Shown here one piece after another: positions 43,752-63,591 of a stretch of 64,000 bases of DNA. The stretch is from Eledone cirrhosa (taxonomy: Eukaryota), in the NCBI GenBank assembly GCA_964016885.1, contig OZ024749.1, forward strand, positions 21,762,001 through 21,826,000, in the 5' to 3' direction. Within the stretch, counting starts at the first letter, position 1. Each line of letters opens with the position of its first letter. A model generated the notes under the pieces. It ran no database searches. It was not told the origin of the DNA and saw only the letters and a list, made by a program, of their open reading frames with translations. The position numbers and the translations under genes were made by a program.

Positions 43752-43802
43752 AGTTTAAGCAAAGAATCGCTGCTTTCACCCTTAACGGGATCTTCTGAAA
43801 CT
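43752..43802 (-). ncRNA. Hammerhead-like motif, family B (variant core CAGAAGA)
   Basis: Minus strand AGTTT-CAGAAGA-T.CCC.gttaa.GGG.T-GAAA-GCAG.cgattct.TTGC-TT-AAACT: all three helices form. AATAAA and TA repeats lie downstream. The core has U4->A. Confidence 0.55.
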
Positions 43803-43889
43803 AACGAAGTCAATCTGTAAACGCAGAACTGGATATTTAAAAAAACGTTGCAACCGGAGGAAGACAGGAAGACGATACTTTGGTTCGTG

Positions 43890-44147
43890 GAAACGTTCGC
43901 TGGCAAAGAACGGGTAAAACGAATATACGTCATTAATAGGAGCGGTGAAAAACAATTACGCGCAAAGACAGAACCACGTTTATGGTATAAAAGAGGTCGT
44001 AGACTAATGTTCTCTTAGGTGGTGCATAGAGACGTTCTCTGGCAATGAACGAAAAAACGAAGATAATACGTCATATGTGGAGTGTGGAGAACAATAGCAC
44101 ACAAAGACAAAACCACGTGAATGGTATAGCAGAAGTCGTAGATTAAA
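43890..44147. repeat. Diverged ~140 bp tandem duplication
   Basis: gaaacgttcgctggcaa...caaagacagaaccacgt...gtcgtagactaa is repeated as gagacgttctctggcaa...caaagacaaaaccacgt...gtcgtagattaa. Confidence 0.75.
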
Positions 44148-44769
44148 ATTCTAACTAGGAGACCAAATGAATCTCCGCTACAGAGTTAAGAACAAAGTAA
44201 ATAAATACAATACAGAAGCAATAGAAATAAATGAATACATACACGCAAACAAATACGTACATACACAAGCATACGCAAAACCTTACCATAGGTATACAGA
44301 ACCACGCACATATAAATATGTGTGTGTGTGTATGCGTGTATACAAATAAATAAATAATTATATAAACGTATATAAATAAATAAATACGTATATAACAAGC
44401 GCACACACATACCTACATATAATCACACGAATGTTCGGAGACGTAACAAGAAGTACACATATACACACACCCACCATACGTACGAACCTGCATACTCACA
44501 CAGACGCAAAACTCCCGTATACACATAGCCAAACCCTATGTACCAGAATATATAAAATTATACGCCAAAACAATCAAATATACGTACGAGAAGGTATACG
44601 TACCTTCACAAAACATACGGGTAATACATACTTACCTATGCAAATAAGTAAAGGAATAAACAAAACATATACTTAGCTCCCACGGTTCTTATATATTTGA
44701 TATATATTTATCCTTATCGAGCCCTCTTTGGATTTTAGTCTTCAAATTTATTATTATTACTATTATATA

Positions 44770-44957
44770 GGCGGTGGATTGGCAGTATCGGTAGAGGGTC
44801 GGACGCCATGCTTTCCAGCATAGTTACGTCCCTTTACGATCTGAGTTCAAATCCCGCCGAGGTTGACTTTGCCTTTCATCCTTACGGGGTCGATAAAATA
44901 AAGTACCAGTAATGCATTGGGTAATTGCTGGCCTTGTGCCTAAAGTAGAAACAATTA
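44770..44957 (+). mobile_element. tRNA-derived SINE, full length, 14-bp TSD
   Basis: A-box-like TGGCAGTATCGG, B-box GTTCAAATCC and central domain gactttgcctttcatccttacggggtcgataaa. TSD attactattatata at 44756-44769 and 44954-44967. Confidence 0.9.
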
Positions 44958-45033
44958 CTATTATATATATATATATATTATATATATATAATATATATAT
45001 ATATATATATTTTATATCGATGTTTGACGGGCA

Positions 45034-45155
45034 TCCACTAATGATTTATAAGTGCCCACCTGCATATATTCCTATGGACTATGTGTAGGCTTCTACATAA
45101 CCTGAACATAATTTTTCCAACTTGTAGAAAACTTATAATGAAACAATTGTTTGGA
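45034..45155 (+). ncRNA. Hammerhead family C, mutated core (CTAATGA)
   Basis: Same fold as 45761-45882 but G5->A, so predicted inactive. Confidence 0.6.
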
Positions 45156-45760
45156 AAGGGAGATGTATTTTAATCATGTCTCATATAAAATAATACAACT
45201 GGCTATCCGCAAAATACATATAGTTAGTACCCCAAACGTAAAATTGGGATTATACTAAGGTATATCCTAATGTTTGTTGAGTGAGATGGCAGCCAGTCAG
45301 AGTATTGCTTAAAGCTTTCTCTGTTAATGTATTAAATATTATACTCTTGATTTGGCCAGAGATGAATATTTCCAGATACCTTTTAAGTGTAACTTTCCGT
45401 ATTTTTATTTGTATGAAATATTGATTGTTATTCTGGTATCTCATCTCTGTTTTTAACCTAAGAAAATACCTATATGCGTGTATAAATAAAACATGCATAT
45501 ATTTATTTTTTTAAATCTAATTGAGTTCTTCATACGCAAGGTTAAAATTATTGAAAGAATTAATTGACCCGCGTGCATATTATTTTTTTTCTTGTGTTTT
45601 GCGATGACCTCCCCTTTCCGCTTGATAACAGTGTGAAATTTCTCATTCTGAGACTGCTGGAATTTCAAATTTGGCGGTCATTCTGACACGGAAGGTGACC
45701 ATCGCTGAACATTGGATATCGGTAAGAACATTTTTTTTTTATATCGATGTTTGACGGGCA

Positions 45761-45882
45761 TCCACTGATGATTTATAAGTGCCCTCCAGCATATATTCCT
45801 ACGCACTATGTGTAGGCTTCTACATAACCTGGACATAATTTACCCAACTTGTAGAAAACTTATAATGAAACAATTGTTTGGA
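45761..45882 (+). ncRNA. Type I hammerhead ribozyme, family C (extended helix II)
   Basis: TCCA-CTGATGA-T.TTATAAGT...ACTTATAA.T-GAAA-CAATTG-TT-TGGA: helix I TCCA/TGGA, intact core, 8-bp helix II base, palindromic helix III ACAATTGT, GUU cleavage triplet. Confidence 0.8.
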
Positions 45883-46281
45883 AAGGGAGATATATTTTAA
45901 TTATGTCTAATATAAAATAATACAACTGGCTATCCGCAAAATACATATAGTTAGCACCCCAAACGTAAAATTGGGATTATACTAAGGTATATCCTAATGT
46001 TTGTTGAGTGAGAGGGAAGCCAGTCAGAGTATTGCTTAAAGCTTTCTCTGTTAATGTATTAAATATATATATATATATATATATATATTATATATATATT
46101 TTATATATGTATATTATATATATATATATATATATTTTATATATATATATATATTATATATATATATATATATATATTTTATATATATATATATATTATA
46201 TATAACGGAAGAAATGTGGTAAGGAACCAGGTGGACCATAACGCACCAAAGTACTCAATACTTAGGGTAGTAGAGTGGGTA

Positions 46282-46396
46282 ATAGGAACGAGTTGGACCC
46301 CGACGGCTGAACTCAAGCCGTTTCGACGGCTAATTCGTCCAGAATTTGCCGTCGAAACGGCTTGAACTCAGCCGTCGGGGTCCAACTCGTTCCTAT
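46282..46396. repeat. 115 bp GC-rich fold-back palindrome
   Basis: 55-bp arms with 3 mismatches around a 5-nt loop (gtcca). Confidence 0.92.
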
Positions 46397-60961: not shown

Positions 60962-61120
60962 GCTATTGTTTCCTCCCGTTGCATTGTATTTTCTTCGCCA
61001 TCATTATTTAGTCTGTTTATATATTTATTTATTTGTTTATTTTATTTTGTCTTCTTTGCGCATGCGTTTGCGTGTGTGTGTAGTGTTTTGTTTGATGTGT
61101 GTTCGTGATTGGCCTCCCTG

Positions 61121-61531
61121 ATATATATATATATATGTATATATATATATATATATGTATATATATATGTATATATATATATGTATATATATATATATAT
61201 ATGTATATATATATGTATATATATACGTATATATATATATATATATATATAAATGCATATATATATATATATATGTATATATATGTATATATATATATAT
61301 ATATATGTATATATATATATATGTATATATATATATATATGTATATATATGTATATGTATATATATATATGTATATGTATATATATATATATGTATATAT
61401 ATATACATATGTATATATATATATGTATATATATATATATATATATATATATATATATATATATATATATATATATATATATATATATATATATATATAT
61501 ATATATATATATATATATATATATATATATA
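61121..61531. repeat. (TA)n/(TATG) microsatellite
   Basis: Direct reading. Confidence 0.95.
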
Positions 61532-61606
61532 GTAATAATAATAATAATAAAATTATTGCAACGTTTTTTGAAATATCCAGTTCTGCGTTTAAAGATTGAC
61601 TTTGTT

Positions 61607-61657
61607 AGTTTCAGAAGATCCCGTTAAGGGTGAAAGCAACGATTCTTTGCTTAAACT
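61607..61657 (+). ncRNA. Hammerhead-like motif, family B
   Basis: AGTTT-CAGAAGA-T.CCC.gttaa.GGG.T-GAAA-GCAA.cgattct.TTGC-TT-AAACT, inside 61556-61678, an inverted copy of ~43731-43853. Confidence 0.55.
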
Positions 61658-61742
61658 TTAATCTGTTATTTTAATAAATATATATATATATATATATATA
61701 TAGGAGGAGTTTCTAGTTCAATTGAAGCATTGTGTAATGAGG

Positions 61743-62169
61743 TATAAACGTTTGTATATGTATAATAAACCCAAAACAATGCAGGTATGGACATAGAATA
61801 AAGAATGCAAATGCAAAAGATATTGTTGACAATTAGTCTTTTAGCTTAGATTTATTTAAATGTCCTTAATTTTCGAGATAATATCTCTTCTTCGGAGTGA
61901 AGTAAAGCGGTTAAACCAGTGTTCTAAATAGAGATAGAACAGATACTCTATACCATTTCCTGTCAGCTTGACTTGGCAAGCTATTTAGAACACTGGATTA
62001 ACCGCTTTACTTCCCTCCGAAGAAGAGATATTATCTCGAAAATTAAGGACATTTAAATAAATCTAAGGTAAAAGACTAATTGTCAACAATATCTTTTGCA
62101 TTTGCATTCTTTATTCTATGTCCATACCTGCATTGTTTTGGCTTTATTATACATATACAAACGTTTATA
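61743..62169. mobile_element. Head-to-head inverted pair (family H): 189-bp arms, 49-bp spacer, hammerhead-like motif in each arm
   Basis: Arms 61743-61931 and 61981-62169 with 4 mismatches. CCT-CCGAAGA-A.GAGAT.att.ATCTC-GAAA-AT-TA-AGG at 62014-62048, mirrored at 61864-61898; the core has U4->C. Confidence 0.7.
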
Positions 62170-62676
62170 TATATATATATATATATATATATATATATAT
62201 ATATATATATATATATATTATATATATATATATATATATATATATATATGTATATATATATATATGTATATATATGTGTGTATATATATATATATATATA
62301 TATATATGTATATGTATATATATATGTATATGTATATATATATGTATATATATATATATATGTATATATATATATGTATATGTATATATATATATATATA
62401 TATGTATATATATATATATATATATATATATATATATATATATATATATATGTATATATATATATATGTATATATATGTGTGTATATATATATATATATA
62501 TATATATGTATATGTATATATATATGTATATGTATATATATATGTATATATATATATATATATGTATATATATATATGTATATGTATATATATATATATA
62601 TATATGTATATATATATATATATATATATATATATATATATATATATATATATATATATATATATATATATATATG
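62166..62676. repeat. (TA)n/(TATG) microsatellite
   Basis: Direct reading. Confidence 0.95.
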
Positions 62677-63124
62677 TAACTATGTATGTATGTATACATA
62701 CATACATATATGTATACAGACGTACAGTAGTATGTATATATATACATACATGCACACATATATATATGCACGTATCGGTTTACCTAACATTTATTATAAT
62801 GTTCGGTTTGTTTGTAAACAAGCAAACAGCCCGAATTGCGCCGTACAGTGGTTAGGCAACCACGTCACCTTTTTGTTCAACACTGACACAGGAAGGATGT
62901 ACGTCTGTATACATATATGTATGTACGTATACATACATACTTACATTTAAGTAAGTGCCGTACTAAGAGTGAGAAATGAAATTTCGTTTCATTCTATTTC
63001 ATTTATCGTTTTCGGTGCGCCCGGCCGACTAAACTTACTCGATATGCAATTTAGGCTGCTCAGCCGTTAATATGCATAAGGAAAGTATATACTTTCAGAT
63101 GTTCAACCATCAGGCAGGAAGGTA

Positions 63125-63169
63125 TACGATGCTGACGTTAGCTAATAAGCTTGAAACTCGTACATCGTA
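63125..63169 (+). ncRNA. Hammerhead family G, variant copy
   Basis: TACGATG-CTGACGT-T.AGCT.aata.AGCT.T-GAAA-CTCG-TA-CATCGTA: 7-bp helix I, but core A9->U. Confidence 0.6.
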
Positions 63170-63550
63170 ATACATATATATATATATGAATATATATATA
63201 TATATATATATATATGTATATATATATATATATGTATATATATATATATATATATATATATATATATATATATATATATATATATATATATGTGTGTGTG
63301 TGTGTGTGTGTGTATATATATATATATGTATATATATATATATGTATATATATATGTATATATATATATATATATATATAAACGGAAAAAATGAAACGAA
63401 ATTTCATTTCTCACTCTTAGTACGGCTGTTATCGTTTTCGGTACCCCGGCCGATTAACTCACTCGATTTGCTAATTAGGCTGCTCAGCCGTTAATATGCA
63501 TAAGGAAAGTATATACTTTCAGATGTTCAACCATCTGGCAGGAAGGTATA

Positions 63551-63591
63551 CGTTGCTGACGATAGCTAATAAGCTTGAAACTAGTAGAGCG
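63551..63591 (+). ncRNA. Minimal hammerhead, family G
   Basis: CGTTG-CTGACGA-T.AGCT.aata.AGCT.T-GAAA-CTAG-TA-GAGCG: intact core, GUA triplet, first helix I pair mismatched. Confidence 0.72.

Follow-up and report, generated by a model that had tools for sequence, protein, structure and literature searches.

Hammerhead motifs and element copies in the window

We analysed a window of 64,000 nucleotides from the genome of Eledone cirrhosa (GCA_964016885.1, contig OZ024749.1, positions 21,762,001 to 21,826,000, forward strand). Copies of ten families, A to J, several of them linked to Penelope-like elements (PLEs), lie in it as follows (window coordinates).

41571..42332, plus strand: family J, 5'-truncated 3' UTR of a putative Hydra-type PLE; hammerhead 42170-42277, U4C core, helix III CAATTG
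43142..43709, plus strand: family I, fragment of a non-coding, tandemly repeated unit of 630 nt (retrozyme); hammerhead 43375-43456 intact, helix III of 7 bp
43731..44683, minus strand: family G, 3' UTR of a putative Hydra-type PLE; hammerhead about 43752-43806, U4A core
45003..46062, plus strand: family A, non-coding unit of 727 nt in partial tandem, ending in (TA)n; helix II arm of 95 nt; hammerheads 45034 (G5A) and 45761 (intact)
46560..50385, both strands: family B, inverted insertion with arms 99-100% identical; intact hammerheads 46754-46811 (minus) and 50269-50326 (plus)
50490..53975, plus strand: local tandem duplication of 1,563-1,569 nt holding one family C copy (50614, 52183, 53746; all U16.1C) and one family A copy (51207, 52776; intact)
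54105..54380, plus strand: family D, short copy; intact hammerhead 54186-54250, helix III TATATA
54458..54966, both strands: family E, inverted pLTR pair of an RT and GIY-YIG PLE; hammerheads 54603 (minus) and 54717 (plus)
58342..58743, minus strand: family F, one copy of a non-coding, tandemly repeated unit of 420-510 nt; hammerhead 58565-58601, helix III CTAG
58740..58907, minus strand: decayed family B-like end; broken hammerhead about 58840-58900
60668..61112, minus strand: end of a family E subfamily; hammerhead about 60920-60962, 2-bp helix I
61556..61677, plus strand: family G, short 3' end; U4A hammerhead at 61607
61743..62165, both strands: family H, inverted pLTR pair of an RT and GIY-YIG PLE; U4C hammerheads 61864 (minus) and 62014 (plus)
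62681..63714, plus strand: family F, two copies separated by a TA tract; hammerheads 63125 (A9U) and 63551 (first helix I pair broken)

The family J copy is directly joined to a TTAGGG-like satellite.

An earlier note on this DNA had listed hammerhead-like motifs at 21 positions and assigned them to about eight families. Site-by-site parsing recovered a type I hammerhead-like motif at every one of the 21 positions, and eight is the correct number of families for them; two further motifs, at 42170-42277 and 43375-43456, belong to families J and I and lie just left of the listed range. Using a strict descriptor (helix I of at least 3 bp, CTGANGA, helix II of at least 4 bp, GAAA, helix III, UH), we detected 10 motifs in 41571-64000, nine of them inside that range (45761, 46754, 50269, 51207, 52776, 54186, 54603, 54717 and 58563). 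Block dinucleotide shuffles (n = 30) yielded a mean of 0.03 strict motifs and at most one, so the motifs do not arise equally often in shuffled sequence. A relaxed descriptor found 17 motifs against 0.93 in shuffles, while an earlier, stricter version returned a single motif because every base at the bottom of helix II had to be paired. An Rfam search of the window at the gathering score gave no matches; standard annotation therefore does not display these motifs.

Among the 21 copies, 12 deviate from consensus in the core or in a helix. Four carry U4 variants at the family level (U4A at 43752 and 61607, U4C at 61864 and 62014), and eight are damaged, through G5A at 45034, A9U at 63125, U16.1C at the three family C sites, breaks in both helix III and helix I at 58840, a broken first helix I pair at 63551 and a helix I of only 2 bp at 60920. 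AATAAA occurs within about 40 nt of 7 of the 21 sites, none of them in families A, C or F. The repeat search was dominated by TA repeats, and from its output we took only the last families and three inverted pairs. Because the motifs are interdependent through inverted pairs, the 727-nt partial tandem and the local 1,569-nt duplication, the 21 probably represent about 13-14 insertions.

Helix covariation, dimer potential and core variants

The motifs share the minimal type I core, CUGANGA...GAAA...UH with three helices, in strict form at 9 of 21 sites and in variant or damaged form at the others. The covariation among genomic copies expected from the earlier note is present in an alignment of family D and a TGCGCA relative, in which 9 of 21 pairs vary on both sides and 94.7% of cells are paired, as compared to 35-53% when slid. 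Since the core of this alignment was picked by pattern, its invariance carries no weight, and kinship among the sequences can by itself outdo a shuffled control. In a genome sample of 79 tiles of 10 kb, holding 69 motifs, helix III is a perfect palindrome in 46 of 69 motifs versus 3 of 22 chance hits, and ten different 6-nt palindromes are represented. Perfect palindromes characterize families A, B, C, D, F and J; that of H has 2 nt, that of E is imperfect, and G and I have stems of the monomer type, with 4 bp in G and 7 bp in I. For A, B, C, D and F, helix III is predicted to be stable in the dimer (-3.2 to -10.0 kcal/mol) and not as a monomer hairpin, whereas for E and H the dimer helix is predicted not to be stable (+1.4 and +2.2). 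Cleavage by hammerhead dimers has been described (Lunse et al., as cited in PMC6765202). Folding as single strands gave no complete hammerhead in families A, B, C, D and G, as would be expected of dimer-dependent motifs, though this lends them no support; the corresponding z-scores (four motifs between -1.2 and -1.7, family G at 0.2 and family C at -3.5) are uninformative.

The motifs resemble the minimal type I hammerheads that Cervera & De la Pena 2014 (PMC4209133) describe for metazoan PLEs, residing in pLTRs, with a short helix I, a long helix II, a small palindromic helix III and often an extra base after A9, occurring in many families per genome and mostly as solo truncated copies, with some opposite-strand pairs 100-700 bp apart. 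They differ in helix II, which comprises arms of 88-118 nt in 16,458 genomic copies. Moreover, the G10.1-C11.1 pair, highly conserved in that description, closes only 14 of the 69 tile motifs, by a count of first and last base that overlooks pairs behind an inserted base; U/U and A/U ends account for 18 each. A U-U at the helix II base is also known from the axolotl, according to the retrozyme accounts cited below. Family G, with 20,960 exact copies, shows U4A in all of 100 copies listed, and family H shows U4C in 62 and U4 in 38 of 100 copies listed (counted by hand).

These variants bear on whether the motifs are catalytic. We think it likely, by analogy, that the hammerheads cut the elements' own RNA. 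They could instead be PLE ends whose hammerheads are largely non-catalytic in vivo, acting as a structural or protein-binding 3' signal or hitch-hiking in the pLTR. The size of the U4A family and the mixed U4 position of family H would fit such a role, as would the weak in vitro activity reported for metazoan PLE hammerheads, dimers included (PMC4209133), and the spread of Naiad PLEs that lack canonical hammerheads (PMC8557442). We nevertheless consider a largely non-catalytic role improbable: the helices covary, palindromes are exchanged for other palindromes between families, and the exact core persists in 175,405 genomic matches of five patterns. In addition, PMC3088659 reports that U4C supports infectivity in viroids and that U10.1-U11.1 is tolerated. 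For family G itself, cleavage may be weak or dispensable, given its copy number and uniform U4A.

Element ends, coding partners and non-coding units

Throughout the families, a fixed 3' end runs into (TA)n with the motif 20-250 nt ahead of that end, while 5' ends are ragged and copies are arranged as partial tandems or as inverted pairs that face outward. Of 20 family A loci, 17 stop at the identical base directly before the TA tract and vary at the 5' end; a modal 3' end before TA was seen in all ten families, and 62 of the 69 tile motifs have a TA tract at most 400 nt downstream, compared to 29% of random positions. Partial-tandem pLTRs, inverted 5'-truncated copies and a fixed 3' end are hallmarks of EN+ PLEs, and the data uphold the proposal in the earlier note of PLE- or retrozyme-type hammerheads with a palindromic helix III and TA targeting. 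Copies 99-100% identical occur in families B, H and I, and several families are accordingly young.

As had been stated, the window holds no coding partner: tblastn with five PLE ORFs found no protein match in it. Elsewhere in the genome, E, G, H and J also occur as longer copies with an upstream ORF for a GIY-YIG-type endonuclease, joined in E and H by an RT. In family H, the ORF lies upstream in the same orientation at 32 of 59 locus hits, overlapping loci being counted one by one, with distances of 300-410 nt among the 30 matches listed; one locus, L273, has a pLTR-ORF-pLTR arrangement of 4.06 kb, and the ORF contains Pfam RVT_1 and GIY-YIG domains and a CX4CPX6C linker. In family E, 15 of 52 copies are immediately preceded by the ORF, which was recognised by translation and profile hits and has YVDD plus a CX4CX2C linker; at locus L042, the subfamily has coding sequence 282 nt upstream. 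Families G and J encode a CxCX5C linker and a CxxC near the C-terminus, before a conserved E; in J this Hydra-type endonuclease lies 750-860 nt upstream in 6 of 21 copies, and a Pfam search of the family G ORF fragment found no domain. Domains, motifs and anatomy, on which the PLE assignment rests, mark E (54603, 54717 and 60920), G (43752 and 61607), H (61864 and 62014) and J as the tails, truncated at the 5' end, of coding PLEs, with G and J probably of Hydra type.

Families G and J share with the Hydra clade, as presented by Craig et al. 2021 (PMC8557442), the CxCX5C linker, the CxxC, (TA)n targets and a hammerhead near the 3' end, and, on visual comparison, the ORF of family G is similar to the Hydra rows of the published alignment. 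That account includes Hydra-1_Obim, a TA-targeting, hammerhead-bearing element of Octopus bimaculoides, the listed hammerhead of which has a canonical core and a sequence other than that of G or J; the latter also depart from the clade in their long 3' UTRs of about 0.8-0.9 kb and their U4A or U4C cores. E and H are like Neptune/Nematis-type EN+ PLEs in having an RT followed by a Cys-rich linker, a C-terminal GIY-YIG domain and a microsatellite bias, a likeness by domains rather than by tree, and the linker of H does not fit CX2-5CxxC. Two Neptune-like ORFs of 938 and 1,096 aa (L041, L043) were considered as parents, but the first 900 nt downstream of them match no hammerhead family of the window. 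Telomere-type EN-minus PLEs, considered given a nearby TTAGGG block, were rejected because this block has no motifs and the linked ORFs carry an endonuclease.

Families A, B, F and I form tandem arrays with spacings of 720-740 nt (A), 2,800-2,920 nt (B), 420-510 nt (F) and 630 nt (I). No ORF lies at a constant distance upstream, and a PLE ORF is absent from three family B monomers and from A, F and I units; scattered ORF hits near copies of A, B, C, D and F, weighed as parents, stand at inconsistent distances and were read as neighbours. Family I units lie head to tail with 99% identity, and a CTAG-type array comprises 31 units of about 466 nt. A (727 nt), F and I are non-coding head-to-tail units below 1 kb with one type I hammerhead each, like the animal non-LTR retrozymes of Cervera & de la Pena 2020 (PMC7229834) and Li, Clavereau & Pollet 2026 (10.64898/2026.07.22.740005), which these accounts propose to be non-autonomous PLE derivatives. 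The family B unit, at 2,805-2,923 nt, is longer than the 51-972 bp reported there. Cephalopods do not appear in the available portions of these descriptions. A, B, F and I are retrozyme-like and behave like passengers of PLEs, not being autonomous members. Copies of C and D share upstream sequence only to about 400-500 nt (39 and 77 copies), and no coding parent was found in the sampled copies, a search limited by flanks of 1.5 kb.

The earlier picture of a non-autonomous community thus holds for A, B, F and I and fails for E, G and H; likewise, coding elements sharing the ends were found for E, G and H and not for A, B or F. Its strongest form, in which every family is a purely non-autonomous retrozyme, draws on the window's lack of a PLE protein match, the non-coding tandem units and the ORF-less sampled copies of C and D. 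Against it stands the coding sequence that E, G, H and J carry at a constant upstream distance. It is thereby contradicted for three of the eight listed families, leaving it applicable at most to A, B, C, D and F, and as a general account it is very unlikely.

The motifs are, with high probability, type I hammerhead sequences in the 3' pLTRs of about ten PLE families, coding and non-coding, that end in (TA)n and likely accumulated by repeated insertion. In the mechanism we propose, a read-through transcript spanning two pLTRs would allow two hammerheads to dimerise via their palindromic helix III, and dimer cleavage after UH would release unit-length RNA, possibly circularised. Insertion would begin with a nick in (TA)n, made by the PLE endonuclease with its Cys-rich linker as guide; the RT would reverse-transcribe the RNA starting at the 3' end, in many cases halting before completion or changing strand, which would explain why nearly every insertion retains the ribozyme and drops the ORF. 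Non-coding units would borrow the enzymes of coding PLEs. The majority of copies in the genome, among them 8 of the 21 listed here, are passengers in decay.

Genome-wide load and local density

Five core-plus-helix-III patterns, family D being the most abundant, gave 175,405 exact matches genome-wide versus 92 in reversed controls, and the total is estimated at about 260,000 hammerhead motifs. This exceeds the 126,247 motifs of the axolotl, the largest count consulted, and the about 2,000-9,000 per genome given in PMC4209133. A bolder reading, which we hold to be possible but doubtful, is that this hammerhead complement would surpass in size and density all those described so far (about 2-4 x 10^5 motifs, 60-90 per Mb versus about 4.5 per Mb in the axolotl), the product of a living ecosystem of coding PLEs and retrozyme parasites that might contain active undescribed variants, namely the U4A core of a 21,000-copy family and helix II arms of 90-115 nt, and might undergo pervasive self-cleavage with circular RNA. 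Under the more restrained interpretation of accumulated PLE ends, the striking part is still the genome-wide load, one motif per 11-17 kb in many families with natural core and helix variation. Together with the young copies, this makes the genome a ready system for asking whether cleavage by PLE hammerheads takes place in vivo and transposition depends on these motifs, and by which coding PLE each retrozyme is mobilised.

Locally, the strict motif density of the window, 4.5 per 10 kb, is about five times the genome mean of 0.87, and the earlier note had left open whether it is unusual. At least four strict motifs occur in 4 of the 79 tiles, one of which holds nine, placing the window in the top 5% or so of tiles, dense and not unique. 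The number of TA tracts alone is insufficient to account for this, since motifs per tract are also raised (0.43-0.47 versus 0.12). Such enrichment, together with the adjoining TTAGGG-like satellite block of at least 61 kb, which itself contains no motifs, might suggest a special locus concentrating ribozymes for a host function. We regard this as scarcely credible in view of the comparably dense tiles, the 2, 2, 3, 5, 1 and 0 motifs in the six 10-kb stretches to the right of the window, the presence of copies in both orientations, many of them damaged, and a count inflated by local duplication. With element class, dimer model and TA targeting all described in earlier publications, the window is an ordinary, somewhat dense patch.

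Hammerhead motifs in the window and the genome

The earlier note had described about 21 hammerhead-like motifs from some eight families at 43,752-63,591, where islands of other sequence interrupt (TA)n-rich DNA. The window corresponds to C9:21,762,001-21,826,000 of a 3.0-Gb assembly. This motif observation is real. A site-by-site parse recognised a motif at 21 of the 21 positions (54717 via the descriptor, 58840 from sequence); Rfam returned no match in the window. Using a strict descriptor (helix I of at least 3 bp, CTGANGA, helix II of at least 4 bp, GAAA, helix III, UH), the region 41,571-64,000 contained 10 type I motifs as compared to 0.03 in 30 local dinucleotide shuffles, and permitting one core change yielded 17 vs 0.93. 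Nine of the 21 sites pass the strict descriptor, four carry a family-wide U4 variant and eight are damaged (G5A, A9U, U16.1C in three, broken helix I in three). Two further families, at 43375 and 42170, lie directly left of the range and had been missed; we denote the ten hammerhead-bearing 3' ends (pLTRs) of Penelope-like elements (PLEs) as families A-J, the latter two being I and J. Because the region contains inverted arms (46695-50385, 99-100% identity) and a local duplication of 1,569 nt, we infer about 13-14 insertions behind the 21 motifs. Upstream of the decayed 58840 motif, 58900-60130 is diverged sequence that by eye resembles the family B interior.

The earlier note could not say whether this density is unusual. 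In 79 tiles of 10 kb, with hand-picked, evenly spread coordinates in the 3.0-Gb assembly, the strict descriptor gave 69 motifs, or 0.87 per 10 kb (0, 4 and 0 in tile shuffles), their number correlating with TA content (rho 0.61). The window, with 4.5 per 10 kb, exceeds the tile mean, but four of the 79 tiles hold four or more motifs and one holds nine, while 44 hold none. The number of TA tracts does not fully explain the density, since there are 0.43-0.47 motifs per tract in the window vs 0.12 in the tiles; duplication, and insertion beside earlier copies as described in a review (PMC6765202), probably add to it. PLE ends flood the genome as a whole, and the window samples the upper tail of their density. 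What is noteworthy is how many motifs the genome holds, together with core variants present in high copy number, not the window locus.

The tiles extrapolate to 263,000 motifs (bootstrap 169,000-376,000). Exact matches to five patterns testing core and helix III only agree with this estimate, totalling 175,405 as compared to 92 for the reversed patterns (D, 60,137; CTAG type, 40,375; E, 30,248; B plus TGCGCA, 28,187; long helix II (A/C), 16,458). Family G gave a further 20,960 matches, with U4A in 100 of the 100 matches listed, and family H 3,513, with U4C in 62 and U4 in 38 of 100 listed. U4C and U10.1-U11.1 are known hammerhead variants (PMC3088659); U4A does not appear in the available text of that paper. 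The largest count found in the literature, 126,247 motifs in the 28-Gb axolotl genome (PMC7229834; preprint 10.64898/2026.07.22.740005), was obtained with a different descriptor and is not like for like with ours. Our literature search, which covered only a minority of subscription papers, found no genome-wide hammerhead count for octopus or cephalopods or in recent surveys, and the available text of an O. vulgaris repeat paper (PMC13282606) did not yield the word "ribozyme".

Helix II covariation and helix III palindromes

Covariation among genomic copies, which the earlier note had named as a test, was found in family D and a TGCGCA relative; thinning 92 pattern matches at 93% similarity left 19 diverged representatives for this alignment. 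Because the selection pattern fixed the core, as well as parts of helix I and helix III, it is helix II that carries this evidence. Both sides changed in 9 of 21 pairs, and pairing held in 94.7% of cells as compared to 35-53% with slid partners; relatedness among the sequences inflates the shuffle control. The family D alignment (A1) retains a C-C mismatch inside helix II between covarying pairs, and family B has a similar one; the retained mismatch is possibly a structural or binding feature.

The palindromic helix III likewise held up: a perfect palindrome of at least 4 nt formed the insert in 46 of 69 tile motifs vs 3 of 22 chance matches, with ten distinct 6-nt palindromes among the inserts. 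A stable intermolecular helix III was predicted for A, B, C, D and F and not for E and H, and predicted single-strand folds mostly did not recover the hammerhead. PLE hammerheads, palindromic helix III and spread as solo copies have been published (PMC4209133), as have retrozymes, for which a PLE origin was proposed (PMC7229834; preprint 10.64898/2026.07.22.740005), and a hammerhead-bearing Hydra element that targets TA is listed for Octopus bimaculoides (PMC8557442 supplement).

Copy ends, coding partners and a proposed mechanism

First-look searches gave hundreds to thousands of candidates per family, which are lower bounds. Family A copies share the same final base directly before the TA tract in 17 of 20 loci (the others having a short tract, a small duplication and a run into the next unit), and their 5' ends fall anywhere within the 727-nt unit. 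One or two modal 3' ends precede TA in all ten families. Copies often lie as inverted pairs that face outward, and where they stand head to tail the spacing is 720-740 nt for A, 420-510 for F, 630 for I, 2,800-2,920 for B and 4,060 for H; fixed 3' ends with inverted and tandem copies match the arrangement described for PLEs (PMC8557442). Long retrozyme arrays lie at G000:C1:5738326-5752304 (assembly contig C1; 31 units of ~466 nt) and at locus L278 (11 units of 630 nt).

The elements had been called non-autonomous, with no coding partner in the region. This stands for the window, which has no PLE protein match, and for families A, B, F and I, with no linked ORF in the copies examined, but E, G, H and J have ORFs upstream elsewhere. 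A GIY-YIG search of the genome returned 10,596 candidates. For family H, an ORF lies upstream in 32 of 59 locus matches (overlapping loci included); at L050 it carries Pfam RVT_1 and GIY-YIG and stops ~380 nt before the hammerhead, and L273 is organised as pLTR-ORF-pLTR. The family E ORF (RT, CX4CX2C linker, GIY-YIG) ends ~200 nt before the motif and is directly upstream in 15 of 52 copies; the 60920 subfamily likewise has an upstream coding region (L042). An ORF was seen upstream in three of 48 family G copies, 0.8-1.1 kb away, and in 6 of 21 J copies; these ORFs have a CxCX5C linker and late CxxC, features described for the Hydra clade (PMC8557442). Pfam did not match the family G ORF fragment, which by eye resembles printed Hydra alignment rows (supplement of PMC8557442). 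In families C and D, the upstream sequence common to the copies examined reaches no further than 400-500 nt. Therefore, the noted motifs are ORF-less remnants of autonomous-type plus non-autonomous families. Two Neptune-like PLEs are candidate helper elements:

L041:4309-7122 (-), 938 aa ORF with RT, CX4CX2C linker and GIY-YIG
L043:2275-5562 (+), 1,096 aa ORF with RT, CX4CX2C linker and GIY-YIG

In another coding PLE family (L044, L045, L051), a tiny hammerhead-like core, composed of CTGAAGA, a short hairpin, GAAA and a palindromic GTAC, lies in the 3' UTR ~430 nt past the ORF stop; motifs of this size fall below the descriptor and are excluded from the genome-wide estimate.

Motif position, end structure, TA junctions, linked ORFs and covariation were observed directly. 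By analogy with published systems (PMC4209133, PMC8557442), tandem transcripts would be cut to unit length by hammerhead dimers and the resulting RNA possibly circularised, a linker-bearing endonuclease would nick (TA)n, and reverse transcription would be primed from the RNA 3' end. We propose that this 3' priming is why truncated copies keep the ribozyme. Metazoan PLE hammerheads were found to have low in vitro activity even as dimers (PMC4209133).

Neighbouring repeats

Three abundant repeats occur among the motifs:

44682-44961, 55651-55868, 56137-56512, 59211-59423, 60235-60427, very abundant short repeat, ~120 matches in 790 kb of tiles
46205-46400, repeat with long palindrome and MITE-like look, 19 tile matches
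57574-57852, repeat, 49 tile matches

The first presumably resembles an octopus SINE and, taken with TTAGGG and the 3-Gb genome size, would suggest an octopod host. Over at least 61 kb, covering positions 1-41570 and the 20 kb leftward (L057, L058), degenerate runs of TTAGGG alternate with TTTTTTCGA/TTTTTTCA runs, all in one orientation (1,975 TTAGGG and 0 CCCTAA in the window). The contig is 56.8 Mb long and the block, at 21.7-21.8 Mb, is therefore interstitial; it may be a satellite of telomeric origin, mark an old fusion or be a candidate centromere.
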